This document shows, piece by piece, positions 1 through 34,692 of a stretch of DNA of 40,699 bases. The stretch covers positions 1 to 40,699 of IMG/VR virus record IMGVR_UViG_3300020045_002641; one strand, 5' to 3'. How positions within the stretch are numbered: position 1 is the stretch's first letter; each line of letters opens with the position of its first letter. The notes under the pieces were generated by a model. The model did no database searches. It saw only the letters and a program-made list of their open reading frames with translations, and was not told where the DNA came from. The position numbers and the translations under genes are program-made. This stretch comes from a virus. Lineage: Duplodnaviria; Caudoviricetes.

Positions 1-161
1 GGTTCCGCAGGCTTGATGCGGTAGTCAGAAGTTGCCCAATCAAATAACGGCTCTCCTTGTGTGTCGTAATAACTATTTGGATAGGCCGGGCTGTTATTCT
101 GAATCTGCTTACCATCAAGGTAAGCCTGTTGAATCTCGGTGCGTTCTTTGAGTGTTTTCAT
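1..161 (-). CDS. Hypothetical early protein, truncated by window edge; paralog of the N-terminus of 3294..4022
   Basis: Manual translation MKTLKERTEIQQAYLDGKQIQ...FDWATSDYRIKPAE vs MKSLAERTAIQQAYLDGKAVQ...FAWHLHDYRIKPAE; ATGA overlap with the upstream stop. Confidence 0.8.
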   Translation of the reverse strand, partial: MKTLKERTEIQQAYLDGKQIQNNSPAYPNSYYDTQGEPLFDWATSDYRIKPAE

Positions 162-676
162 TCGCCTTTCTCCAATTTGTCAGCTAGCTCATCAAGCTCA
201 ACAACGGCGTGATGTTCCATAGCATCACCGCTTAACGCATACTTTTCTATGAAATAGTCAGCGGCTTTTCGCAAAACCTGAGCATCCCGCTTGCGCAGGA
301 TTTCTGCGCCGGTATCGGTCATAGCGAGAGCTTCCTTTGCGTACCTAAGTTCGTAAGAAACATCTTCATCATCCGGGCTGCGAAGGTCTTCACATTCAAG
401 GTCATGCAGCATCTTTAGCGCATTTCGCAACACTTCGTTCTGCGCTGCGAGTTCGGAAATCTGATCTGTCAATCCGTTGAACCGGGTTTCCTCTACCTCA
501 AGCTCGGCTTCTAGCTCATTGATCCGTGCATCCTTCAGCGCGGCGCAGGCTTGCCATGCGCTCCAGTTTTCCTGCACGCAAAGGGTCTTGTATGTCCCAT
601 TACTGCGCTTCTCGATGTTGCGTGAAACGCTGTCGTCGACGCTGGCCCACTTCTCAAATGATTCTTGTTCGGTCAT
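158..676 (-). CDS. Hypothetical coiled-coil early protein; paralog of 1957..2466
   Basis: Start MTEQESFEKW after a GGAG RBS; shares N-terminal and central modules with 1957..2466. Confidence 0.8.
   Translation of the reverse strand: MTEQESFEKWASVDDSVSRNIEKRSNGTYKTLCVQENWSAWQACAALKDARINELEAELEVEETRFNGLTDQISELAAQNEVLRNALKMLHDLECEDLRSPDDEDVSYELRYAKEALAMTDTGAEILRKRDAQVLRKAADYFIEKYALSGDAMEHHAVVELDELADKLEKGE
281..451 (-). repeat. 171-bp inverted repeat, left copy
   Basis: Reverse complement matches 2257-2427 with 3 mismatches by eye. Confidence 0.92.
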
Positions 677-819
677 TTCTTTTTCTCCATAATGTGGAAC
701 TGCCAACCACAGTGCGGACAGTACATAGTTTTTGTTGGTATCCAGTCCCCAATTGACCACCACTTCGTGCAAGAGTCGCAAAGGAAGTGATATAGGGTTT
801 CTTTGCTAAACTGGATCAT
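673..819 (-). CDS. Small zinc-ribbon protein
   Basis: MIQFSKETLYHFLCDSC...YCPHCG; two CxxC motifs; GGAG RBS; ATGA overlap with the next gene. Confidence 0.7.
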   Translation of the reverse strand: MIQFSKETLYHFLCDSCTKWWSIGDWIPTKTMYCPHCGWQFHIMEKKK

Positions 820-918
820 CACTCTCTCCCTATAACCGTTCAGCGCGCGGTGGCTCAGGGAGTACTGGCTGGCCTTGCAGCAAGGGCGCGAAGTCCGGCT
901 CATCGGCAGGCCAGGGCG

Positions 919-971
919 GTAATCCCCAGCTCGTCAGGTATTCGTGGAGTGCCTGACCGGATGCGGATTGC
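919..971 (+). promoter_or_regulatory. Long imperfect RNA hairpin upstream of the first rightward gene (possible RNase III/processing site)
   Basis: GTAATCC..GTCAGGTATTC gtg GAGTGCCTGAC..GGATTGC, then AGGAGG RBS; function is inference. Confidence 0.45.
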
Positions 972-990
972 ATCGACACAGGAGGTTCAG

Positions 991-1254
991 ATGAGCAAGC
1001 ATACAGCAGTCGTGACGCTCGACCTAGGCGAGCTAGGCGAGACAGAGGTCACGGTGAATTACAGCTACAGTCCGGCAGTGCCGGGTCGGCAGTTCCTGAA
1101 GAATGGCGATCCAGGTTATCCGGATGAGCCGGCGGAGCTGGAAGTCCTCTCCCTCGCTTACGAAGGGATAATCCTGCCGCAATCCTTCTGGGCCTGCGGG
1201 ACCAGCGCAATCAAAGAAGCCCTGAACATCGAATGGGAGGAAGCGCCATGCTGA
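991..1254 (+). CDS. Hypothetical phage protein
   Basis: AGGAGG RBS before ATG 991; GDPGYPDEPAELEV motif typical of small phage early proteins. Confidence 0.75.
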   Translation: MSKHTAVVTLDLGELGETEVTVNYSYSPAVPGRQFLKNGDPGYPDEPAELEVLSLAYEGIILPQSFWACGTSAIKEALNIEWEEAPC

Positions 1255-1415
1255 GCCAGTCACCATTCCAGCGCTTCACCGCCTTGGCAGAGCGGCTCTA
1301 CCCGAACCTGCCTGACCGAAGGCTCCAGCGCCGGCAGGCCAGGCGCTTCATCCACGCAGCCCGTTACGCCCGGCAGACCTCGGCGGGTAAGCGAATCTAC
1401 GGCCAGGAGGAATAG
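1248..1415 (+). CDS. Hypothetical basic protein
   Basis: GGAGG RBS; overlaps the upstream stop. Confidence 0.6.
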   Translation: MLSQSPFQRFTALAERLYPNLPDRRLQRRQARRFIHAARYARQTSAGKRIYGQEE

Positions 1416-1416
1416 C

Positions 1417-1503
1417 ATGAAAAACGAACCAGGCGATGTGGCGGTGTTCTGGCTCGCCCTGGCTGTGCTTACCTACACAACCCTGGAGACAATACCGTGG
1501 TGA
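1417..1503 (+). CDS. 28-aa membrane peptide (not in ORF track)
   Basis: AGGAGG RBS; MKNEPGDVAVFWLALAVLTYTTLETIPW; fills the gap between neighbours. Confidence 0.55.
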   Translation: MKNEPGDVAVFWLALAVLTYTTLETIPW

Positions 1504-1784
1504 CCTTCGCGGAGTATCTCGCCAGGCATGTCTCTGGCCGCCCGGTTCAGCTCAAGGCGGTACTCCCGTTCTGGGAACCGCCAGCTCCGGCGGCTACGGT
1601 GAAGCTAACCCCGCTGCACCAAGAAGTCCTCGACGCAATCCAGGGCGAGATGTCAACGCTGGAACTCTCCGCCATCCTGGGAATCAAGAATGAAGCTACC
1701 CGCTGGCGGGCGTACGCGCTGTGTTATAAGGGACTGCTGGAGAAGGTTCCAGACACGCACCCGCAACGCTGGAGACGGACATGA
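1497..1784 (+). CDS. Protein with C-terminal winged helix-turn-helix
   Basis: QEVLDAIQGEMSTLELSAILGIKNEATRWRAYALCYKGLLEKV...RWRR wHTH pattern. Confidence 0.65.
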   Translation: MVTFAEYLARHVSGRPVQLKAVLPFWEPPAPAATVKLTPLHQEVLDAIQGEMSTLELSAILGIKNEATRWRAYALCYKGLLEKVPDTHPQRWRRT

Positions 1785-1960
1785 ATCACGACTTCACCAA
1801 GACGCAGATCGCCGAGCTGGAGATGCTGCGGAAGCAGCGCGACGAGTTGCTTGCTCTTGTGATTCGGTACAGAACCGAAACACCGCTGGGGCATCAGCCG
1901 CACATGATCGCGCATCTAGCTGACGCAGCAATCTCCAGCGTGAAAGGAAAGAAGCCATGA
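1781..1960 (+). CDS. Hypothetical protein, 59 aa (not in ORF track)
   Basis: MNHDFTKTQIAELEMLRKQRDELLAL...; GGAG RBS; ATGA overlaps at both ends. Confidence 0.7.
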   Translation: MNHDFTKTQIAELEMLRKQRDELLALVIRYRTETPLGHQPHMIAHLADAAISSVKGKKP

Positions 1961-2466
1961 CCGAACAAGAAGCATTTGAAAAGTGGGCCAGCGTCGACGG
2001 CTCCGTGATGCGCAACATCGAGAAGCGCGGCAATGGGATGTACTGGAACGTTAACATACAATCCGCATGGAGCGCATGGCAAGCCTGCGCCGCGCGGAAG
2101 GATGTAGAACTCAACCCGCTGAAACTCGCGGGAAAGGTGGCGCTGGATCGCATAGCGGAGCTTAAAGCAAAAGAATCCCAACTTCGAGCATTGCTCGACA
2201 CCTACAATCTCGGCGGGTGGACAGATGCGGAAAGACTAATCTCAGAACGAGATGCGCTCGCAGCGCAGAACGAGGTGTTGCGAAATGCGCTAAAGGTGCT
2301 GCATGACCTTGAATGTGAAGACCTTCGCAGCCCGGATGATGAAGATGTTTCTTACGAACTTAGGTACGCAAAGGAAGCTCTCGCTATGACCGATACCGGC
2401 GCAGAAATCCTGCGCAGGCGGGATGCTGCTTTGCTGCGTAAACTTGCCGACGAGCAGACAGTGTGA
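1957..2466 (+). CDS. Hypothetical modular coiled-coil early protein; paralog of 158..676
   Basis: Coupled to the upstream gene; shared modules with the leftward paralog. Confidence 0.8.
   Translation: MTEQEAFEKWASVDGSVMRNIEKRGNGMYWNVNIQSAWSAWQACAARKDVELNPLKLAGKVALDRIAELKAKESQLRALLDTYNLGGWTDAERLISERDALAAQNEVLRNALKVLHDLECEDLRSPDDEDVSYELRYAKEALAMTDTGAEILRRRDAALLRKLADEQTV
2257..2427 (+). repeat. 171-bp inverted repeat, right copy
   Basis: Matches the reverse complement of 281-451. Confidence 0.92.
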
Positions 2467-2549
2467 ACATGCCCGCACTGTGGTGGGGTGCCAGGAACTG
2501 GTGGAATTATGTGTTGTGATCTAGATTGGTGACGCACTGGAGAACGAAA

Positions 2550-2798
2550 ATGGCAATGGCTGATTACAGACTGTGTGACGTATGTGGGTGCAAGGCGTTC
2601 TATGACGCAAAACTGAACTACGACTGGCCGGATAAAAACGGGAATGATGAGTTCGGTAACAAGATCGAACCTCACGAGCTTGTCCGCGACAGCGGGCACA
2701 AACTGGACATGCTTGGGGATTGGGCTGTGATCTGTACAGATTGCGCCAAGACGCACAAATGTATCGTCGCGCATCTTGAACTGGGGAAAGCAAAATGA
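2550..2798 (+). CDS. Zinc-finger hypothetical protein
   Basis: CDVC...CTDC; GGAG RBS before ATG 2550. Confidence 0.75.
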   Translation: MAMADYRLCDVCGCKAFYDAKLNYDWPDKNGNDEFGNKIEPHELVRDSGHKLDMLGDWAVICTDCAKTHKCIVAHLELGKAK

Positions 2799-3118
2799 CA
2801 GACAAGGAACTTCTCGAACTTGTGGCTAAGGCTGCGGGGATTGAGGAAGACACTCGTTATGCAGGGTGTTACTACAACGACAATGGGCTGCCGTGGAACC
2901 CTCTCGCTGACGATGGCGATGCTTTGAGGCTTGCGGTGAAATTAAAACTATCAGTCGATACAGACTGGTACAACCCAGATGCTTGCTGGTACACAGAAAA
3001 AACAGTAGTCGCAGGCTCCGAAAGCGTTGAAGAAGAGCCACATAACGCCGATCCCTACGCAGCAACACGCAGGGCGATTGTCAGGGTAGCAGCACAAATT
3101 GGAAAGGAGATGGAATGA
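2795..3118 (+). CDS. Conserved hypothetical phage protein
   Basis: WNPLADDGDALRLAVKL and DPYAATRRAIVRVAAQIG motifs common in proteobacterial phage early regions. Confidence 0.8.
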   Translation: MTDKELLELVAKAAGIEEDTRYAGCYYNDNGLPWNPLADDGDALRLAVKLKLSVDTDWYNPDACWYTEKTVVAGSESVEEEPHNADPYAATRRAIVRVAAQIGKEME

Positions 3119-3297
3119 CCGAAGAAGATCGAGAGATGCGAGCCATAGTAATGCAGCTAGCTGGCGCAGTAGGGTTGCCGGATGAATGGCTAGGGGAGCC
3201 AACGCTAGTGATATTGAAGGCTTGCTACAACCGAGTGCTGGAAGCAAAGTCCTTATTTTCTCAGGGCGTCATGATGTTGAAAGGGGATAAGAAATGA
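3115..3297 (+). CDS. Hypothetical protein
   Basis: AGGAG RBS; ATGA overlaps on both sides. Confidence 0.65.
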   Translation: MTEEDREMRAIVMQLAGAVGLPDEWLGEPTLVILKACYNRVLEAKSLFSQGVMMLKGDKK

Positions 3298-4022
3298 AAT
3301 CACTAGCAGAACGAACCGCCATCCAGCAGGCGTATCTGGATGGGAAGGCTGTGCAGTTCTTTTCGAGGCTCGAAGAAAAGTGGATAAATCTAGTCGGGGC
3401 AGATGGGGATTTTGCATGGCACTTACACGACTACCGCATAAAGCCTGCCGAGCCTGTGAAGTTGTATCAGGCGTTGTGCAAAGCCGGTCGTGGGTATTAC
3501 GTGTCATCCTATTTGTATATCGACGAAGCTGCCGTACGCAAAGAACTGCCAAATGATTTCATCCGTCTTCTTGTGGAGAATCCAATCACTGCTGTCAACA
3601 CGGAAAAGGAGCGAAAAATGGAAAAGATTTTGGCGATAAATGATTACGAAGGAAAAGACGGATATTCAGGTGTTGAAGGGTTTGAGGTTGTTACCGACAA
3701 ACAGAGCATAAAACTCTTCATTGATAACGACCAATCTTGTTGTGAAAAATGGGGTTATTTCTGGTGCAACGAAGACCCGCAAATCTTTATTGGTTCTGAA
3801 CTGCGTGGCGTTACCGTTACCGACGACGCCCTTAACGAAGGGCAGATGAAGGCCAACGACCTGAATCCGAATGACAAGTATTTTGAAGGCGGGATTATGT
3901 TTGTAAATCTCGACACGAGCGCCGGAGTGCTTCAGTTTGTGGCCTACAACGAACACAACGGCTACTACGGGCACGCTGCGAAGGTCGTCAGCACGCAACT
4001 GACGCGTGAAGAAAGATTGTGA
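3294..4022 (+). CDS. In-frame fusion of two hypothetical phage genes (second start at 3618)
   Basis: Internal AAGGAG RBS + ATG 3618 (MEKILAIND...QSCCE...NEHNGYY); N-terminal half is paralogous to 1..161. Confidence 0.75.
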   Translation: MKSLAERTAIQQAYLDGKAVQFFSRLEEKWINLVGADGDFAWHLHDYRIKPAEPVKLYQALCKAGRGYYVSSYLYIDEAAVRKELPNDFIRLLVENPITAVNTEKERKMEKILAINDYEGKDGYSGVEGFEVVTDKQSIKLFIDNDQSCCEKWGYFWCNEDPQIFIGSELRGVTVTDDALNEGQMKANDLNPNDKYFEGGIMFVNLDTSAGVLQFVAYNEHNGYYGHAAKVVSTQLTREERL

Positions 4023-4030
4023 CGGCTAAC

Positions 4031-4164
4031 GCGGCGACGTGTATCACTCGATTTGGCGTCTGATCGGAGCCGAAGACATTGATGGCAACGGGATGTCTCA
4101 GCGGGCCGACGACAAAGCGAAGAGCATTAAGCGCTACCTGCATCACCAAGCGCCTAACGCCTGA
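4031..4164 (+). pseudogene. 3' remnant of a cassette gene
   Basis: Frame RGDVYHSIWRLIGAED...HHQAPNA* ends inside attC like the other cassette genes but has no RBS or 5' part. Confidence 0.5.
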
Positions 4165-4207
4165 ATTCACCGGACTGCTACGCAGCCGGTGCAATGACGG
4201 GTTAGCC
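4152..4207 (-). other. attC-like recombination site
   Basis: Minus strand: GGCTAAC CCGTC ATT(G)CAC CGG CTGC GTA GCAG T CCG GTG AAT TCAGGC GTTAGGC = R'', 5-nt spacer, L'' with an unpaired base, stem-loop, L', 6-nt spacer, R'. Confidence 0.8.
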
Positions 4208-4250
4208 GTGCGCCCGACAATGCACAGCACAAAGCAAAGGAGAAACAAAC

Positions 4251-4475
4251 ATGAGCCAAGAAAAACTAGACCACGTTGTTGCTGGCGCAATTTTCGATTT
4301 CATGGGATGGCTGACTACGCGCCCAGAAAAACTTGTGCTTTCCAGCGCAGACAACGCCGCGCCAGCCGCAGAAGCGGTAAAGGATTTTCTAACGATGCGC
4401 GGCGTTGCGCAGGATTGCGAGCCGATGATTCACGACTGGCCTGCACGGTGCAGCATGGTGACGGCTAACGCATAG
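4251..4475 (+). CDS. Hypothetical protein, cassette cargo
   Basis: AAGGAG RBS; flanked by GTTAGCCGT (4201) and ACGGCTAAC (4461). Confidence 0.8.
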   Translation: MSQEKLDHVVAGAIFDFMGWLTTRPEKLVLSSADNAAPAAEAVKDFLTMRGVAQDCEPMIHDWPARCSMVTANA

Positions 4476-4600
4476 CTTGAGGGACTGGCGGCCGTCTTGA
4501 CCGCTATGCGGCGGTAGTACGGCGACCAGTAACAAGCCGCCGCCCTGATGCTACGGGCGAGGCCAAGAACAGTCATGGGTGCGTTGGTGGCGTTCATCAT
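4430..4600 (-). CDS. Putative 56-aa antisense leader ORF
   Basis: AAGGAG RBS 8 nt before ATG; MMNATNAPMTVLGLARSIRAAAC...; downstream of the minus-strand promoter; reads through the degenerate att site. Confidence 0.4.
   Translation of the reverse strand: MMNATNAPMTVLGLARSIRAAACYWSPYYRRIAVKTAASPSSYALAVTMLHRAGQS
4463..4538 (-). other. Degenerate attC-like site (R' and L' intact, R'' missing)
   Basis: Minus strand ...CCAGTCCCTCAAGC TATGC GTTAGCC; imperfect hairpin 4475-4538. Confidence 0.5.
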
Positions 4601-4650
4601 GGCGGCGACTCCTTAAAAACCGGGTTGCGAAATGCTGCCCTATGTGAGTC

Positions 4651-4678
4651 ATTATATCCACCGGATATAGATTGTAAA
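4651..4678 (-). promoter_or_regulatory. Leftward sigma70-like promoter with overlapping palindrome
   Basis: TTTACA-16-TATAAT on the minus strand; TATATCC-N3-GGATATA inverted repeat across the spacer and -10. Confidence 0.6.
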
Positions 4679-4701
4679 GAGGCGCAAGAGGTATTTTTGA
4701 G

Positions 4702-4791
4702 GGCTAACGCTTAGGTAACAAGCCGCCGCGACCGGTGGCTATTTGACGAACAACGCTCATTGCGGCGGTCTTGTTGACCGTTGAGTTGGGC
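4702..4791 (-). other. attC recombination site (canonical geometry)
   Basis: Minus strand: GCCCAAC TCAAC GGT(C)AACAAG(A)CCGCCGC...GCGGCGG CTTGTT ACC TAAGC GTTAGCC; two unpaired bases 6 nt apart as in classical attC. Confidence 0.88.
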
Positions 4792-4817
4792 TGGTTTTTG
4801 ACAAAGGAATTGACCAA

Positions 4818-5051
4818 ATGATTACGTTTACCGTAGCAGAAATTAAAGACTTGGCCGAGTGCGCAGGAATTGCTTTAGCCAAGGACGTTACCTATGACGC
4901 TGACGAACTGGAAACCGAAATCGTTGTGATGGTGTGCCCGAAAGAAGGGGTTCGGAACGATGACGGGAAACCCGAGCATTACACACACATTGCCTTTTTT
5001 GCGGACTACCCGGAAGAAGGTAGCCACCCACTCGGTGGGAAACTGACTTGA
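4818..5051 (+). CDS. Hypothetical acidic protein, cassette cargo
   Basis: AAGGA RBS; flanked by GTTGGGC (4785) and GCCCAAC (5053). Confidence 0.8.
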   Translation: MITFTVAEIKDLAECAGIALAKDVTYDADELETEIVVMVCPKEGVRNDDGKPEHYTHIAFFADYPEEGSHPLGGKLT

Positions 5052-5052
5052 C

Positions 5053-5088
5053 GCCCAACGCAGAGTAGACACCTATTGAGGTGTCTAC
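5053..5088 (-). other. Terminal att-like site: R' box plus perfect 10-bp hairpin
   Basis: GCCCAAC GCAGA GTAGACACCT attg AGGTGTCTAC. Confidence 0.5.
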
Positions 5089-5118
5089 AACCCAAAAAAC
5101 GAGCAATGGGAGAGTGAT

Positions 5119-5334
5119 ATGACCTTACAGCAAGCCCTCGAATGGGCGGACAAGAACAGCGGGGCAGAAGCAACCGACCGTCTGCGTAGTCGTGCCGTAG
5201 TCAAAACCCTTGCCTCCACTGTCCGGACATACGAGAGATGGATCGAGCAGCACGGAGAGTACAGCAACACATGCACGCGCCTGATCCTCGGCAGGGTCTG
5301 TCCGTATTGTCAGTGCGAACGGGAGGATAAATGA
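5119..5334 (+). CDS. Hypothetical protein with Cys-rich C-terminus
   Basis: GGAG RBS; H...C...CPYCQC. Confidence 0.7.
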   Translation: MTLQQALEWADKNSGAEATDRLRSRAVVKTLASTVRTYERWIEQHGEYSNTCTRLILGRVCPYCQCEREDK

Positions 5335-5516
5335 ACCGCATCCTAGCGTGGCTATTGCCACACCTCTGCCCCATCTGCGGGCGCAGATACCGGAAGGCCG
5401 GCTGGCACATCTGCCGGCTTGAAGACGTCTGCACGCCTTGTGCCCGGACACTCCAGTCCACCCACTCCGCCGCAGAACATCGCCCGGACGGTACAGTTCG
5501 TACAAATACCCATTGA
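5331..5516 (+). CDS. Small zinc-finger protein
   Basis: GGAGG RBS; CPIC...HIC. Confidence 0.5.
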   Translation: MNRILAWLLPHLCPICGRRYRKAGWHICRLEDVCTPCARTLQSTHSAAEHRPDGTVRTNTH

Positions 5517-5540
5517 CACCCATGGCGCATCGCGTATAAT
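5513..5540 (+). promoter_or_regulatory. sigma70 promoter
   Basis: TTGACA-16-TATAAT, both hexamers consensus. Confidence 0.8.
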
Positions 5541-5601
5541 CAACAATTCGGGAACACGGTAACGCCCATTCAAAAGGTTGCCACATTAAGGAGTAGTTAG
5601 A

Positions 5602-6228
5602 ATGGCTGAAGTTAAGAAAGAACGTGAAGTCGAGATCGTTACGCTGGAAGACGGTCGTCAGGTAGAATTCGTCGGCAAGCGCCGTGTGCTGAAGGAAGCT
5701 CTGATCGACGAAAGCAAGATCGTGGTCGAAGGCGATGTAGTCCAGGTCAGCACCGGCGCGCTCAAGGTTCGCTTCGACCTGAAGAATGGCTCAACCCGCA
5801 CCTTCGAGATCCCGGTCGGCATGCTCGTGCAGTTCGCCGGCCACGGCGCGGAACAGAAATACGGCGACGAACTGGCCACGACGGCAGCGAATCCCTTGTC
5901 TGAGGAAGACATGGTCGTAGCCCTCGAAGACCTCGACGCCCGTATCCAGAAGGGCGACTGGCGTGTCCAACGCTCCAGTGGCGGCGGTGTCAGCGGCGCA
6001 AGTACAGTCATCCTCGCCATTATGGAAGCAACCGGCAAGGACCAGCTCACCGTCAAGGCGTTCCTGCAGAAAAAGCTCGACGCAGACCCGATGCTCACCC
6101 GGGCGGCCTTGTACGCATCGTTCCGCAATCCTGCATCGAAGACCGGCGCTATCATCAAGCGTATGGAGGAGATGAAGGCCGCCAAGGTCAGCAAGATCGA
6201 CGCGGACGCTGTCCTCAACGAGATGTAA
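5602..6228 (+). CDS. Hypothetical protein, probably highly expressed
   Basis: Own consensus promoter, TAAGGAG RBS, strongly biased codons. Confidence 0.85.
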   Translation: MAEVKKEREVEIVTLEDGRQVEFVGKRRVLKEALIDESKIVVEGDVVQVSTGALKVRFDLKNGSTRTFEIPVGMLVQFAGHGAEQKYGDELATTAANPLSEEDMVVALEDLDARIQKGDWRVQRSSGGGVSGASTVILAIMEATGKDQLTVKAFLQKKLDADPMLTRAALYASFRNPASKTGAIIKRMEEMKAAKVSKIDADAVLNEM

Positions 6229-6460
6229 GAGTCCTGCTTTTCAAGCAACCCCTCAGCGCATCGCGGGGTTGTTTCTGAAGCAGTCTCCCCGGCGAGTCAC
6301 TCCCTCTCGCCTTGACTGTCTAGCGCCAGCGGATTGAGCCTCCCACCTGGCGCGGGATTCGCCCCGGCCTCTTCCCGACATGGAAGGCCGGGGCTGGAGT
6401 CTTACCCTGGAGGCTGGATACGACGGAAGGTTGCTCCTCGACAGTCTTTCACCGTATCCC
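6229..6460 (+). ncRNA. Candidate structured RNA (multi-stem, pseudoknotted)
   Basis: At least 7 complementary helices in a gene-free interval; family not recognised. Confidence 0.5.
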
Positions 6461-6481
6461 CCAAGTTAGTGTAGTTCTGTA

Positions 6482-6510
6482 TTGACACGTGCGCGTTATG
6501 GGGATATAAT
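6482..6510 (+). promoter_or_regulatory. sigma70 promoter
   Basis: TTGACA-17-TATAAT perfect consensus. Confidence 0.88.
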
Positions 6511-6552
6511 GCGTATTGAATTATACAATTTATCACGCACAGGAGGCTCACA

Positions 6553-6759
6553 GTGAAACCTAGTTTTTCGTTCCCTCTCCCAGTCCGCCAGTCCGTGCCT
6601 ACGCACAACGGCTGGGTCAGCCGGGCATGGGATTACGACGCAGCAATCGCGGCGATCAAGTCAGGCGGATGGTTCAGCCATCTATTGTCGTATGACTGGA
6701 ACTCCACCGCAACGACCCGCGCGGTGTTCCAGTTCCAGCGGGAGCGCTATGATGTCTGA
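6553..6759 (+). CDS. Hypothetical protein
   Basis: AGGAGG RBS, GTG start, first gene after the promoter. Confidence 0.7.
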   Translation: MKPSFSFPLPVRQSVPTHNGWVSRAWDYDAAIAAIKSGGWFSHLLSYDWNSTATTRAVFQFQRERYDV

Positions 6760-7327
6760 CCTGATCGACCTAGACGATCTCTGGACGGATGTGCTAGTCC
6801 AGGCGGCGCCGAAGCCCCAGGCCAAGGCCGTGTCCGAAGACCCCGGAGCGCGGTATACCAAGGCGGAGAACTGGCAGCGCACCCGTTGCATCGCGCTGAT
6901 CCACGCCGAGACGCAGACCTTGCTCGGTAACTTCAGCGAATACCTACATCGCACCGTCGCAGGATGCCGAAAGCTCTGCCGGGAAAGCCTGGACATGCCA
7001 GCTACAGCGGTAGAGCTGGTGTCAGGCTCATGGTGGATCGACCCATGCCATCGCCCGGAACCTGTCCACACCTGGCACACCTCGCAGGAAATCTTCTGCC
7101 ACGTGTATCTGCGTGAGCTGCAAGTCCATGCCCCGGCTGTCGCTCTCACGGTGTTCAAGTCCTACGGCAGCATCGCCCGAGTGGAGCTGGCGCAGCCGAC
7201 CCGTTTCGCCCAATGGCACGAAGGCGGCGCGAGTGGCGAAACCATCCTTGACCTACCCCAGGGTACGAATGTGTGGGAAGTCCTCTCGCGCGACACTCGT
7301 ATCCGCATCCAGGAGGAAACCGCATGA
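6749..7327 (+). CDS. Hypothetical protein
   Basis: GGAG RBS before ATG 6749/6752; operon packing. Confidence 0.75.
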   Translation: MMSDLIDLDDLWTDVLVQAAPKPQAKAVSEDPGARYTKAENWQRTRCIALIHAETQTLLGNFSEYLHRTVAGCRKLCRESLDMPATAVELVSGSWWIDPCHRPEPVHTWHTSQEIFCHVYLRELQVHAPAVALTVFKSYGSIARVELAQPTRFAQWHEGGASGETILDLPQGTNVWEVLSRDTRIRIQEETA

Positions 7328-7500
7328 CCAGTATCCGCTTTCGTTTCTGGGAGTCTGACTCCTGGACCACTATCACAGCCGATGGGCCGGAAGAAGATTC
7401 CGCTGTCGACCTGATTACCGCCCGACTCTTGACGAGTGACTTCACCGAAGTCCAGGTGGAAACAGCCGAGGGCTGGACTCCGCAGGAGGATGCAGAATGA
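7324..7500 (+). CDS. Small acidic hypothetical protein
   Basis: AGGAGG RBS; ATGA overlaps. Confidence 0.7.
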   Translation: MTSIRFRFWESDSWTTITADGPEEDSAVDLITARLLTSDFTEVQVETAEGWTPQEDAE

Positions 7501-7775
7501 GCCGCCCAGCTGCCGTTATCCCCGGCGTCAAGCTAACCACGCAGATACCGCAGGACCTACACCAAGCGTTCGAGCGTATGATGTGGTCGCCGCTGCAGAA
7601 CTGTGTGCCGCGAGGAACCTGGTCGTCGTTCATCAGCACAGCGATCAGGGACTTGCTCCGCACAGAACAGCTCGATCTCGCACCGTATCTCGACAGCTTC
7701 CCAGGCGATCTCATCGTGCGCGGGCATCCCGAAGCGATTCGCGCCTTAACCAAACGACTGGAGAATGACGTATGA
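7497..7775 (+). CDS. Putative ribbon-helix-helix DNA-binding protein
   Basis: VKLTTQIPQDLHQAFE...WSSFISTAIRDLL strand-helix-helix pattern. Confidence 0.55.
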   Translation: MSRPAAVIPGVKLTTQIPQDLHQAFERMMWSPLQNCVPRGTWSSFISTAIRDLLRTEQLDLAPYLDSFPGDLIVRGHPEAIRALTKRLENDV

Positions 7776-7981
7776 GCCCTGAAATGCAAATGCAGATCGC
7801 CGGCTGGCGTAGCAGGATCGCCGACGGCACGATCACAGTGGAGGAGATGAAGGCCGCCATCGCGGCTCTCCGCCAAGACCGAATCAGCGCAGCGTATGTG
7901 AGCGAGTCATCTCGTGCACGTAAGGCGCCGAAACCTGCCCTGTCCGCCGATAGTTTGCTTGGCGAACTGGACGATATGTAG
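7772..7981 (+). CDS. Hypothetical protein
   Basis: ORF in operon, GGAG RBS. Confidence 0.7.
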   Translation: MSPEMQMQIAGWRSRIADGTITVEEMKAAIAALRQDRISAAYVSESSRARKAPKPALSADSLLGELDDM

Positions 7982-8012
7982 CACTATCAACCTGAGACAG
8001 AAAGGCACTATC

Positions 8013-8234
8013 ATGAAAACGCTTCCCGCCATGCCGGAAACCGACATTTCGATTGAAGGCGATCTCGTAACTATCTCACAGCTGGCGCATTACTCCAGCA
8101 ACACCATCACATTCCCATACGCCATGCTTAACCTCATCGTAGAGAGCATTATCAGCGAGCGTCTGCATGACCTGGACCAGCGCGAACCGTGCTGCGGCTC
8201 CTGTACACACGAAGATGAAGAGGCGCCGAAATGA
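8013..8234 (+). CDS. Hypothetical protein
   Basis: AAGG RBS; ATGA overlap with the nuclease gene. Confidence 0.65.
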   Translation: MKTLPAMPETDISIEGDLVTISQLAHYSSNTITFPYAMLNLIVESIISERLHDLDQREPCCGSCTHEDEEAPK

Positions 8235-9151
8235 CCCGCCCACCATTCCCCCACGTCATCGACAGCACGATCATGGCGAGCTTCAAGTCCTGCCCGCAAC
8301 TCGCCTTCCGCCAGTACGTCGAGCATTGGAAACCTCTCGGCGTCAGCGTCCACCTCCACGCCGGGGCGGCGTATGCGAAAGGCCTGGAAACCGCCCGTGA
8401 AGCATTCTATGTCAAGGGAGCTTCTCGTGAAACGAGTGAAGCAATCGGTCTCCAGGCACTCCTCACCGCCTACGGCGACTACGCCTGTCCGCCGGATTCC
8501 GCTAAGTCCGCCGAGCGCACTGCTGGAGCGCTGGAGTTCTACTTCTCTCGCTACCCGTTCGGTGAAGATGATGCTATACCCCTCATCCTTCCTTCCGGCA
8601 GACACGGAATAGAGTTCAGCTTCGCGGAGCCCCTGGACATCCTCCACCCTGAGACAGGCGATCCACTCCTGTACTGCGGCCGGATGGACATGCTCTGCAG
8701 CAAGGGCGGGATGAAGCTCGGTGAGGATGATAAGACTGCATCCCAGCTCGGCGCGTCCTGGCCGAGGCAGTGGGACTTGCGTAGTCAGTTCACAGGGTAC
8801 GTTTGGGGCGCAGCCCGCGCGGGGATCAAGCTGGACGGATTCCTGGTTCGTGGTGTCTCGATCTTGAAGACGAAGTACGACACCCTCGAGGCGATAACTT
8901 ATCGGCCACAGTGGCAGCTAGATCGTTGGGAAGCCCAGCTCTACCGAGACTTAAACCGCATGATGCAGTGCTGGAAGGACGGTTACTGGGACTACAACCT
9001 GGACCACTCCTGTGCTGAGTATGGCGGCTGTCCAATGCGTCAGGTGTGCTTGATGAAAGACCCCCAAGCGCTGCTGGAGCAGCAGTTTGAACAGAGAATT
9101 TGGGACCCAATCGCCAGACGGGAGACTACCCTTGAGATCGGGAATAGCTAA
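8231..9151 (+). CDS. PD-(D/E)XK exonuclease, Cas4/RecB-like with a four-Cys cluster
   Basis: SCPQ...E...GRMD...DDKT...QFTGY...CAEYGGCPMRQVC. Confidence 0.88.
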   Translation: MTRPPFPHVIDSTIMASFKSCPQLAFRQYVEHWKPLGVSVHLHAGAAYAKGLETAREAFYVKGASRETSEAIGLQALLTAYGDYACPPDSAKSAERTAGALEFYFSRYPFGEDDAIPLILPSGRHGIEFSFAEPLDILHPETGDPLLYCGRMDMLCSKGGMKLGEDDKTASQLGASWPRQWDLRSQFTGYVWGAARAGIKLDGFLVRGVSILKTKYDTLEAITYRPQWQLDRWEAQLYRDLNRMMQCWKDGYWDYNLDHSCAEYGGCPMRQVCLMKDPQALLEQQFEQRIWDPIARRETTLEIGNS

Positions 9152-10870: not shown

Positions 10871-11353
10871 ATGTCTGCATTTAATCCCGCCGCGTTTCTG
10901 GAAGCCCAAGTCACTGAAGTCAATGAGCGCCGCAATCCCCTGCCGCCAGAAAATCCAGCTGATGAGGGCGGCCTGTACACCGCCTTGATCGGGGAAATCA
11001 CCACCAGTTCCGGCATCATCGGCAAGGGCGACAAGACAGGACAACCCTGGATCGCGATGGTCGTTCCCCTCAAGATCGAAGTTCCGAAGCAAATCCAGGA
11101 CGCTCTCAGCCTCCCGCCAGTCCTCACCATCTCTGACCGGGCGTTCCTGGACTTGAACGCTCAAGGCGGCCTCGACAACGGTCCCGGCAAGAATCGTCAG
11201 CAGAAAGTCTATCGCGAAGCTTGCGACCTGAACAAGCCGGGCGATGTGTTCTCGTGGCGTAGTCTGGGCGGTCGCGTAGTCAAGGTAAAGATCGCGCACG
11301 AGATGTACGATGGTAATATCCAGGAGCGGATCGCCGCCGTTCTCCGCGCCTAA
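10871..11353 (+). CDS. Putative ssDNA-binding protein (DUF669-like)
   Basis: PLP...GLYTALI...LGGRVVKVKIAHEMY pattern; position after the Sak4-like gene. Confidence 0.6.
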   Translation: MSAFNPAAFLEAQVTEVNERRNPLPPENPADEGGLYTALIGEITTSSGIIGKGDKTGQPWIAMVVPLKIEVPKQIQDALSLPPVLTISDRAFLDLNAQGGLDNGPGKNRQQKVYREACDLNKPGDVFSWRSLGGRVVKVKIAHEMYDGNIQERIAAVLRA

Positions 11354-11366
11354 GCATCCCGCCACA

Positions 11367-11402
11367 CCCTCGACTCGCCCTGCGCTTGTCGGGGGTTTTT
11401 TT
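11367..11402 (+). terminator. Rho-independent terminator
   Basis: CCCTCGAC...GTCGGGGG followed by T7. Confidence 0.7.
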
Positions 11403-11417
11403 CGTCAAGGAGTTAGC

Positions 11418-12764
11418 ATGAAAACCATCGCACTGAAAAACATTATCATCTCCCCAACGCGCCAGCGTCGAGACTTCGACCTCGGTCGCCTGAACGAGTT
11501 GCGCGAATCCATCGTCAAGCGCGGGCTGTTCCACCCGATCGTGCTGCGCGAGGATGAAGGGAAGTTCTACCTAGTCGCCGGTGAGCGCAGGCTACGCGCG
11601 GTTACAGACCTGTACGAGCTCGGCGATAACTTGACTTTCGATCAGATAAAACTCCCCCTGCGCCATATCCCTTACGTCAATCTCGGCGAACTGGACGAAC
11701 TCGACCGCGAGGAAGCTGAACTCGAAGAGAACACACACCGGGTCGACCTGTCCTGGCAGGAAAAAGCGATGGCGACTGCACGGCTGGCCAGTCTCCGCCA
11801 GCGTCAAGCCCTATCCGCCAATCTCCCCCTGCCGTCGGTCAAGGATATCACACTGGAAATCACAGGCGACAGCTCCAAGGGCAATCCAGCGTACGAACAA
11901 GCCACCACCCGGCAGGAAATGCTCATAGCCCAGCATCTCGACCGGCCGGAGATTAGCAAGGCGAAGTCGCTCCAAGACGCATACAAGACCCTGAAGCGCC
12001 AGGAATCCCTGCGCACCAACGCAGCGATTGGGAAACTCGTCGGCCAGACCTACAGCAGCAAACTACATAAATGCTTCCAGGACGATTCGGATGTATGGCT
12101 GCGTGAGGCGCCGGCAGGGCTGTACGATGTCATCCTGACCGACCCGCCGTATGGCATGGGCGCGGATACCTTCGGCGATTCCGCTGGCAAAACCGGGACA
12201 GGTTCCAACGAACATGCCTACGCCGACGACGAAGACACATTCATTCGCCTTGTCCGCGTGCTCGCTGAGCAGAGCATCCGCATCACAAAGCCCCAGGCGC
12301 ATCTGTACTGCTTCTGCGACCTGGACAATTTCCACTATCTCCGCGACCTGTTCGAGAGCGTCGGCTGGCAGGTCCATCGCACTCCCCTGATCTGGGCGAA
12401 GACAAACGGCGCCCGTGTGCCGTGGCCTGAGTGTGGTCCTCGCAGGTCCTACGAACTCATCCTGTATGCAGTCCGCGGTAAGCGCCCCGTCACCGCCATA
12501 GCGCCGGATGTCCTCACCTTCGCCGCCGATCCGAACCTCGGCCATATGGCACAGAAGCCTGTCGCACTGTTCGCCGAACTGCTCAAGCGTTCCTGCCGCC
12601 CAGGCGACCAAGTCCTCGACCCATTCTGCGGCACCGGCCCGATCTTCGAGGCAGCGCAAGCACTACAGCTAATCGCCACCGGCGTGGAACTCGACATCGC
12701 GCACTACGGTATGTCTATAAACCGCCTTGAGCGTCTGTCTGCTCAACTAGAACTGGAGGTCTGA
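11418..12764 (+). CDS. ParB/Srx N-terminal domain fused to an N6A/N4C DNA methyltransferase (beta class)
   Basis: GLFHPIVLR...LVAGERRLRA...ELEEN (ParB); TDPPY precedes QKP and VLDPFCGTG; AAGGAG RBS before ATG 11418. Confidence 0.9.
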   Translation: MKTIALKNIIISPTRQRRDFDLGRLNELRESIVKRGLFHPIVLREDEGKFYLVAGERRLRAVTDLYELGDNLTFDQIKLPLRHIPYVNLGELDELDREEAELEENTHRVDLSWQEKAMATARLASLRQRQALSANLPLPSVKDITLEITGDSSKGNPAYEQATTRQEMLIAQHLDRPEISKAKSLQDAYKTLKRQESLRTNAAIGKLVGQTYSSKLHKCFQDDSDVWLREAPAGLYDVILTDPPYGMGADTFGDSAGKTGTGSNEHAYADDEDTFIRLVRVLAEQSIRITKPQAHLYCFCDLDNFHYLRDLFESVGWQVHRTPLIWAKTNGARVPWPECGPRRSYELILYAVRGKRPVTAIAPDVLTFAADPNLGHMAQKPVALFAELLKRSCRPGDQVLDPFCGTGPIFEAAQALQLIATGVELDIAHYGMSINRLERLSAQLELEV

Positions 12765-33549: not shown

Positions 33550-34373
33550 CAGTCCTTAACATTAAAGTAGAGCTCAGCGTATTTGTTACGCCATTCCTGC
33601 GGGGTTTTGTAGCGCTTGCCTTCGCCGACCTTCGAGCGTAGGTCAGCGTCACAGGCGGCCTTGGCTTCGGCGGGTAGGTCGGAGTAGCTGGTTCCAGTTC
33701 CTGCGTTACCGCCAGGACGGGCGCCAGATACCTTATCCACCGGGGCGGCTTTTGGTTCCTTCGGCGACATCACCGCGTCGACCTCAGCTGCTACGCGGTC
33801 CCAGAATGGCTTGCCGACCAGGTGCATCAACGAGGCGTCAGCACGCAGTTCAGCCCCAATGCCATCAGCAAGTGCGGTTCTGCGCTTATCAGTCCCGTAC
33901 CACGGATTCGCCGCCTGCCATTCCACGAACTCCGGCGGAATCGGCGGAAGCTTCGGCTGCGCCACAGTAATCTTCGGCGCTGGAGCCTCGACCTTCTGCA
34001 TCTCGACCAGTTGCTCCGTCAGATCAGCCACACCTTGATGGTCGCCGTTCTCACTAGCCGCGACCAGTTGCGCCTTGAGCTCTCGCTTCGCCGCGTCCAC
34101 TGCGCGCTGCGTCTGTACAGTGTGTTGCTCTTGCATGTCAGCGATAGCTTCCTGAGCTGCACGCAAAGCGACTTGAAGCTCTTGGTGTTGCTGGCGAACC
34201 GACGCGACTTCCGACTGCAATCGCTCGTTATTTTTCTGGAGAATCGGCATGATATGCTTGCCCTTCTCCACAAAAGTCTCCGCATCCACCCAGCGTTCTT
34301 GATCACCACGAAACTCCTCCGCAGGAACCCACCCAAGCACTCTGGCTTGTGCTTCAATCGGCACATCAGACAT
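33549..34373 (-). CDS. Scaffolding protein
   Basis: A...GW.P.EEF.G....W.DA.TF; coiled coil; W...NPW.G. Confidence 0.78.
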   Translation of the reverse strand: MSDVPIEAQARVLGWVPAEEFRGDQERWVDAETFVEKGKHIMPILQKNNERLQSEVASVRQQHQELQVALRAAQEAIADMQEQHTVQTQRAVDAAKRELKAQLVAASENGDHQGVADLTEQLVEMQKVEAPAPKITVAQPKLPPIPPEFVEWQAANPWYGTDKRRTALADGIGAELRADASLMHLVGKPFWDRVAAEVDAVMSPKEPKAAPVDKVSGARPGGNAGTGTSYSDLPAEAKAACDADLRSKVGEGKRYKTPQEWRNKYAELYFNVKD

Positions 34374-34692
34374 CTGAACACTCCTCAGTTATACGACAAA
34401 AAATATCTCGATCATTCACCAGGCGGTAAGTTTCGCCATCCGCCGGACCCTTAGCCATGAACCCAGCGAACTTAGTCACGAAGACCTTGTCGCCCGGTAC
34501 GGCTCTGTGCTCCCGTTCGTCTGACCACGCATCGTTACCGAGCGCAATGACAATAGCCCGATTCTCCAGCATCGCACCGCGTTCCTGTACAGAATCCGGC
34601 AGGGCGATCAAGCCCTTCTTGCGCTCCGGCTCATACGCCTGAATCAACACGGCCTTACCCCTCGGTTCCAGTCCACTCTTGTTTTGCATCAT
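34366..34692 (-). CDS. groES: Co-chaperonin GroES (Cpn10) homolog
   Basis: LEPRGKAVLI...KKGLIALP...VIALG...GDKVFVTKFAG...YRLVNDRDI. Confidence 0.9.
   Translation of the reverse strand: MMQNKSGLEPRGKAVLIQAYEPERKKGLIALPDSVQERGAMLENRAIVIALGNDAWSDEREHRAVPGDKVFVTKFAGFMAKGPADGETYRLVNDRDIFCRITEECSDV

Follow-up and report, generated by a model that had tools for sequence, protein, structure and literature searches.

A putative attI-led, integrase-less cassette array with reversed cargo in a phage, tied to betaproteobacterial integrons

The DNA analysed here (the window) is a whole viral record of 40,699 nt, linear and about 89% complete. It carries an integron platform with no integrase gene on the contig, in which a putative attI site is followed by five attC cassettes, some intact and others decayed. 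This platform is likely acted on in trans by the IntI encoded in the chromosome of a betaproteobacterial host. At the level of sequence we demonstrate the sites, their strand polarity and the homology of the attI; we further show modular breakpoints at AA|C and that bacterial integrons contain cassettes of this type. Clusters of attC sites in phages are already known; what appears to be new, judging by the literature covered, is an attI-led, integrase-less phage array with reversed cargo that is tied to betaproteobacterial integrons.

The PHROG matches in the window are to DNA polymerase, primase, a Sak4-like protein, terminase, portal and tail genes, and the array is located among small plus-strand genes of the phage early region. 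No tRNA genes were found in the window, and an Rfam scan of positions 1–9000 gave a single weak chance match. Searches of the atlas returned unnamed clusters only, and blastn of 3900–5400 against 50,697 GenBank phage records gave only a 45-nt piece of the DUF7448 gene. The left end (108–682) is an inverted paralogous copy of early genes at 1948–2427 and 3293–3347 (identities of 98% over 171 nt, 80% over 157 nt and 76% over 55 nt). Either part of a divergent early operon was truly duplicated, or the copy may stem from a join made in the assembly. The window also holds a GroES-like gene (34366–34692, minus strand) adjoining the portal gene, and a ParB-like domain fused to a DNA methyltransferase (11310–12764, plus strand). 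Two promoters that fully match the sigma-70 consensus (5513–5540 and 6482–6510, plus strand) lie farther right than the array.

The two complete attC sites claimed in the preliminary description were both found on the minus strand when the two strands were searched with a covariance model derived from 46 attC sites of bacteria (a non-redundant set of 47 structured sites, from which the shortest was omitted). The 90-nt site at 4702–4791 (top strand minus, bottom strand plus) scores 45 bits (E = 3.8e-7). The 56-nt site at 4152–4207 (bottom strand plus) scores 31.7 bits (E = 2e-4) as compared to 15.1 bits on the plus strand, and the best match beyond the two sites in the whole 40.7 kb has 14.2 bits. 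The model replaced a hand-written attC detector, which gave false matches and overlooked degenerate sites (e.g. those of MW202573). Both sites have R', L', L'' and R'' boxes, spacers of 5–6 nt and an imperfect hairpin, and on the plus strand both hairpins are arranged like the bottom strand of the aadA7 attC given in Table S3 of PMC9892861. In the 90-nt site, T and G are extrahelical on the plus strand and the terminal loop is long. In the 56-nt site, with spacers of 6 and 5 nt, C is extrahelical on the plus strand and the second unpaired base is located on the other arm than in aadA7. Compared with shuffled sequences, the plus strand folds with z values of −3.95 (4152–4207) and −2.28 (the other site). 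The exact pattern of the 56-nt site did not occur in the viral contigs. With two sites above 20 bits, the array is a CALIN by the definition worded in PMC9892861 (at least two attC sites within 3 kb and no intI), as called by our own covariance model.

All five core boxes reported earlier are present, and five of 16 YYAACGC boxes on the plus strand fall within 1030 nt (P = 0.0066 for random placement). The boxes that flank an intact gene are complementary (GTTAGCCGT, 4201–4209, with ACGGCTAAC, 4461–4469; GTTGGGC, 4785–4791, with GCCCAAC, 5053–5059), while the two ends of each attC within the array mismatch at one and two positions. Both features had been described before. As the attC matches lie on the minus strand and the intact genes on the plus strand, the genes are reversed relative to their own attC. 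The usual form of a cassette, with the gene on the attC top strand and the attC on its 3' side, is absent for the intact genes: the attC is 5' and its bottom strand is coding.

Counting leftwards from the attI, cassette 1 (4708–5058, plus strand) has complementary ends and consists of an attC body, a ribosome-binding site, a 77-aa gene and a GCCCAA end. It adjoins the attI and would be the newest. The cargo gene (4818–5051, plus strand) has no Pfam or PHROG match. Of 27 homologues of its protein, 16 end in PN or DN followed by a variable tail (P0027 was counted as a miss), as expected from read-through of the AA|C junction. Cassette 2 (4469–4707, minus strand) is decayed and in normal orientation, with a truncated gene and its own promoter. 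The promoter is sigma-70-like (4678–4651, minus strand, 11/12 consensus) and overlaps a 7-bp inverted repeat (4653–4669); its exact 22-nt pattern had no match in the metagenome contigs. An AAGGAG (4614–4609) precedes the ATG (4600, minus strand), and the gene is cut after about 39 codons, running into a remnant of an attC left arm (approximately 4469–4483). The 30 residues encoded by 4573–4484 are 83% identical to part of a 116-aa protein. A reading of 4480–4530 as an attC loop was rejected, as this is coding sequence on the minus strand. An exact 15-nt duplicate (4529–4543 and 4715–4729) places part of the left arm of the 90-nt attC inside the minus-strand coding remnant of this cassette.

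Cassette 3 (4158–4468, plus strand) contains an attC body, a leader, a 74-aa gene and a ACGGCTAA end, and the same gene occurs in the viral contig L003. The stop codon of its ORF (4251–4475) lies inside the next site. Cassette 4 is a remnant, the 3' half of a gene (4030–4157, plus strand; 44 codons are translated up to the stop at 4164) fused directly to a core box, with the attC and the gene start missing. Cassette 5 is closed by the core box at 4024–4030 (minus strand), which was assigned by its sequence and by likeness ending at 4032 in contigs from the public runs X6 and X8. Its cargo, which lies outside the stretch covered by the preliminary description, is a DUF7448 gene (3618–4022, plus strand; PF24240, E = 1e-13). 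The upstream attC is missing, and the gene is now in frame with an ORF starting at 3294. Homologues of the DUF7448 gene cover 3600/3614–4032 as a unit, with a GTTAG box in the sequence before 3604 in run X2. Three of the five units are broken. The alternation of boxes with single genes, claimed at first sight, holds for the two intact genes; 4030–4157 is a 3' remnant and 4469–4707 a truncated gene. Likewise, three cassettes had been taken to carry backward genes, which is right for 4158–4468 and 4708–5058 and wrong for 4469–4707, a normally oriented unit with its own promoter. The cargo had been called phage-type, and the homologues are indeed small phage proteins, with the 74-aa domain found within viral proteins. 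No plus-strand promoter above 9/12 consensus was found upstream of the array and no minus-strand consensus promoter near the attI; the sole strong one on the minus strand is that inside unit 4469–4707.

The core box at 5053–5059, initially listed as one more core box, belongs to a site of attI type at 5053–5100 (minus strand), identified by this box and by homology to sites adjacent to intI. The core box is followed by a 5-nt spacer, a 9-bp inverted repeat (5065–5073 and 5080–5088, with a 6-nt gap) and a run of A. There is no R'' box and no extrahelical base. By homology and position this is a putative attI at the head of the array, and crossover would occur between 5058 and 5059. A strict motif (AAC-G-N4-6-TAGACACC-gap-GGTGTCTA) occurs in 13 viral loci (two are repeat contigs, and two groups share identical sites). 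It closes the array in 11 of the 13 viral loci. The other two, L350 and L354, are without attC matches; L350 has only 408 nt on the array side and L354 is apparently a chance match. All 31 attC matches of the 11 loci are on the gene-source side of the motif and have a single polarity, and no R'' box was found at attC distance in the viral loci with the motif. A relaxed motif is located 136–158 nt upstream of the IntI match in nine of 34 betaproteobacterial integrons, with 18–24 of 31 nt identical to the window; the motif had been tuned on the phage sites before this count, and the remaining 25 integrons have other attI sequences. These 34 are the loci with at least 170 nt upstream in a set of 36 intI loci. 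The relaxed motif has a single match in the window and none in 290,762 nt of bacterial attC loci. Two further bacterial integrons share the first half of the motif. Among 401 genomes of the order of G034, the genome that holds locus L292 (Azonexus sp.), the strict motif occurs in one, where it leads an array of normal orientation and is located before a remnant of intI. The fixed position at the array end, the lack of an R'' box and the homology to intI-adjacent sites led us to reject 5053–5088 as a decayed attC or a terminator.

Just right of the attI lies a 71-aa ORF (5119–5334). Its homologue in another viral contig (L085, 1375–1482; 64% over 36 aa) starts directly after a reversed attC, and the ORF may therefore be a former cassette gene. 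In L003, a larger reversed array ends in a different attI-like sequence (2712–2760), which by eye resembles those of L385 and L395.

Exchange of neighbours is seen for several cassettes. In L003, a copy of the 74-aa gene (93%) is bounded by the two boxes known from the window. The reversed array around it is another one, in which this cassette is first as compared to third in the window, and the likeness stops three bases past AA|C. In the other 16 of 17 viral relatives, the 74-aa domain forms part of larger phage proteins and is not bordered by attC sites. Eight public runs (out of 24) were compared over 3600–5600 with contigs at 85% likeness; the figures are at-least values, and the contigs can stem from other organisms, none being the window's phage. 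The 74-aa cassette was found in X1, X2, X3 and X6; the likeness ends at 4469–4473 and at least six different sequences follow. In at least seven of the eight runs, the 90-nt attC is preceded by foreign sequence before 4694–4709, and the sequences after 4791–4802 have differing ribosome-binding sites and start codons. Cassette 1 is spanned from 4771 to 5062 by a contig of X2, whereas a contig of X6 ends at 5055; cassette 4 is covered from 4031 to 4125 in X6. Another X2 contig passes from 4025 directly to 4704 at a core of 7 nt common to both places; either three units were lost, or the attC is that of another cassette with an identical site.

The body of the 90-nt attC (4708–4791, 84 nt) is found with 0–3 mismatches 5' of different genes in 20 loci. 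A 22-nt probe for the 90-nt attC gave one viral and 19 metagenome loci; the 20 rows compared are the window and the 19 loci with enough flank, L339 being left out. The body starts at AA|C in all loci but one (L338, AA|T); 16 different 12-mers are found before it and 14 different cargo sequences after it. In 14 of the 20, the first box downstream is the complementary GCCCAAC. Locus L328 (3954–4720) shows two reversed cassettes in an array that shares the 90-nt attC and the attI type of the window, then an apparent tRNA gene as read from the sequence. Homologues bounded at the same boxes, which the preliminary description had asked for, are hence seen in L003, in the run contigs and in the loci with the 84-nt attC body, and the crossover at AA|C that it proposed agrees with likeness ending within 0–5 nt of AA|C.

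These end points bear on the idea that the hairpins are repeats with a regulatory or boundary role and that genes are swapped by homologous recombination through the Sak4-like annealing protein, with no integrase. Such a protein is encoded in the window, and a near-identical attC body in many loci could serve as homology. The likeness, however, ends 0–5 nt from AA|C and not inside the repeats, the cassette ends are complementary while the attC ends in the array are mismatched, the two attC sites of the window are unlike in sequence, and the attI is at one fixed end. We regard this explanation as very improbable.

Polarity was surveyed with one bottom-strand pattern, which gave at least 138 viral loci (6/64 parts) and at least 150 bacterial loci (1/64 parts). 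The unique sites numbered 144 in viruses and 202 in bacteria; 47 and 118, respectively, passed a folding filter, and 41 and 102 had a 250-nt flank. Gene strand was assigned by a crude ORF scorer based on amino-acid composition and trained on the window; with it, the genes flanking filtered sites were reversed versus normal in a ratio of 68 to 4 in viruses and 23 to 150 in bacteria. Sites that failed the filter gave 100 to 14 and 15 to 95, respectively. Counted by contig, 27 of 31 viral contigs are reversed, two normal and two tied, as compared to three reversed, 44 normal and seven tied among 54 bacterial contigs (Fisher p = 5e-15 without ties, the contigs not being independent). A weaker count by stop-codon distance gave 13 reversed, six normal and seven neither for viruses (n = 26) and 10 reversed, 53 normal and six neither for bacteria (n = 69). 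The cassettes of Tetrasphaera phage TJE1 are in normal orientation, so the reversal is not universal in phages. A published phage CALIN, MW202573 (L002, 2069–3738), is reversed, with four minus-strand attC matches among plus-strand genes.

The same attC is also present in bacterial chromosomes. G034 belongs to the family Rhodocyclaceae in GTDB; IntI is encoded in 67 of 121 genomes of its family. The 90-nt attC is found at 99–100% in two of 401 genomes of its taxon, G452 and G662. In G452, it heads the first cassette, with the gene facing an attI-like site beside a truncated intI; the contig has 3.15 Mb, and the genes around this array include those for transposase, FtsX and GGDEF/EAL proteins. 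G662 has the same arrangement, a first cassette headed by this attC with its gene facing an attI-like site, here located between thiC and bacA, and normal-orientation genes follow. Both genomes encode a full IntI elsewhere (on another contig in G662). The cassettes of the metagenome loci L330 and L347 are the same as those in the two chromosomes. Among 20 readable intI loci, the longer ORF of the first cassette points away from the attI in 19. The exception, L364 (2590–3470, genome G037), is a chromosomal integron with intact intI whose first positions are taken by two genes facing the attI, one of which resembles a phage XF1762-type gene. The likeness of the attI and the two chromosomal matches suggest that the host may belong to this betaproteobacterial family. 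An attI is recognised only by its cognate integrase, as stated in PMC2095811, and the attI type of the window accordingly points to the host group.

A bacterial origin of the whole piece would also account for an attI of bacterial type. On this account, attI and cassettes were captured from a bacterial integron and form an inert, decaying piece that is no longer shuffled in the phage; three of the five units are broken, and 17 related phage loci, covering up to 7 kb on each side of a shared gene (less in several), gave no attC match. The 17 loci share genes to the right of 5602 but neither the array nor its flanking genes, and a relative with an empty site was not found among them. Against capture, the first cassettes of bacteria face away from the attI (19 of 20) while those of the window face it, and the cargo is phage-type, with the 74-aa domain free of attC in 16 other viral loci (14 of them scanned with the model). 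The attI motif moreover closes different arrays in 11 viral loci, and the same cassette has different neighbours in L003 and in four runs. An inert capture is in our view unlikely. Three decayed units out of five and the 17 related loci without an attC match nevertheless mean that the array may be a recent or a dying acquisition.

No integrase was found in the window, in agreement with the first description, by profile, six-frame or tblastn searches for a tyrosine recombinase. None of the 51 scanned ORFs had a PHROG integrase match, a six-frame search with PF00589 gave no match (14 of 14 control genomes were positive), and tblastn with six bacterial IntI loci gave a best E of only 0.02. As the contig is linear and about 89% complete, an integrase could sit in the missing part. 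The cassettes might then be moved by a phage-encoded integrase, from the unsequenced part or from a co-infecting phage, with a minor role for host IntI. Bacterial intI genes, however, start approximately 135–170 nt from the attI, and in the window this place holds the 71-aa ORF, with no intI remnant found to the right of the attI. Viral records with such sites gave no IntI match in any of 33, of which only four are at least 90% complete (none of the four has a match), and the attI type is that found beside chromosomal intI genes. A phage-encoded integrase is therefore a doubtful source of the movement.

The preferred explanation remains recombination by the IntI of the host. The borrowing of a host integrase, proposed in the preliminary description, gains indirect support from the bacterial type of the attI and from the reversed cassettes that occupy the first position in bacterial integrons. 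IntI cuts both the attI and the folded bottom strand of the attC at AAC, as described in PMC5027507, so that a new cassette enters the attI in a fixed direction. In bacteria, this direction aligns the gene with a promoter reading away from the attI (PMC5027507), and folding is favoured by single-stranded DNA during replication or phage infection, according to PMC8946536. Host IntI would act on the phage DNA in the same manner. The neighbouring early genes of the phage would read towards the attI; because phage transcription runs in this direction, cassettes with a flipped attC, in which the hairpin comes before the gene, would be expressed and kept. Normal cassettes would be silent in the phage unless they have their own promoter, as in the decayed unit 4469–4707, and reversed cassettes would be silent passengers in a host array. 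New cassettes would enter at 5058|5059, with older ones decaying leftwards.

Like the phage CALINs of Qi et al. 2023 (PMC9892861), the array consists of clustered attC sites interspersed with small genes, with no intI found in the phage. That study reports 17 phage CALINs and recombination of five of six phage attC sites with attI1 by IntI1. Two of its examples are TJE1 and MW202573, normal and reversed, respectively, by our check. Its main text makes no remark on bottom-strand genes, which its figures or annotation file may show, and as described there the only attI-led CALIN is in the cryptic Shewanella prophage M16-3, which has intI. Unlike the CALINs presented in that text, the array of the window is attI-led with no intI on the contig, and its cassettes change neighbours. 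The structure of the attC sites, their polarity to the attI and the attI type are like those of sedentary chromosomal integrons of Betaproteobacteria, and one attC family is shared with chromosomal arrays; the differences are that no intI is beside the attI, that the intact genes face the attI and that the cargo is phage-type. A gene facing the attI is also the outcome of inverted cassette insertion (Nivina et al. 2016, PMC5027507). In that route, as described there, gene and attC flip together and the cut is at R'', whereas in the window R' is the box that is cut, and gene and attC are in opposite orientation to each other (20 loci). Inversion of a whole cassette by top-strand attC recombination was rejected, since the attC keeps its normal polarity to the attI and is cut at R'. 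In the literature covered, mostly outside subscription journals, we found no description of reversed polarity in phage cassettes and none of a phage attI without intI for a lytic-looking phage.

Integrons are treated as devices of bacterial adaptation, and the making of new cassettes is a long-standing open question. The combination of a host-type attI with back-to-front cassettes offers a defined test system, in which attI and attC are named and there are candidates for the cognate integrase, and a near-identical attC on many unrelated genes gives a handle on the creation of cassettes. If the array works as proposed, the host integrase would also diversify the phages of the host, cassettes would pass between phages and chromosomes, and some 'antisense' chromosomal cassettes of unknown function would be parked phage genes. 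We suggest, tentatively and at somewhat less than even confidence, a mirror-image cassette economy, in which phages use the host integrase, its cognate attI and a common attC added 5' of unrelated early genes, with polarity as the code. Phage cargo would then be expressed in a phage array and silent in a host array, and host cargo, for example defence genes, would be silent in the phage. The integrons of the host would unknowingly store phage genes, and new cassettes would arise in the early regions of phages.
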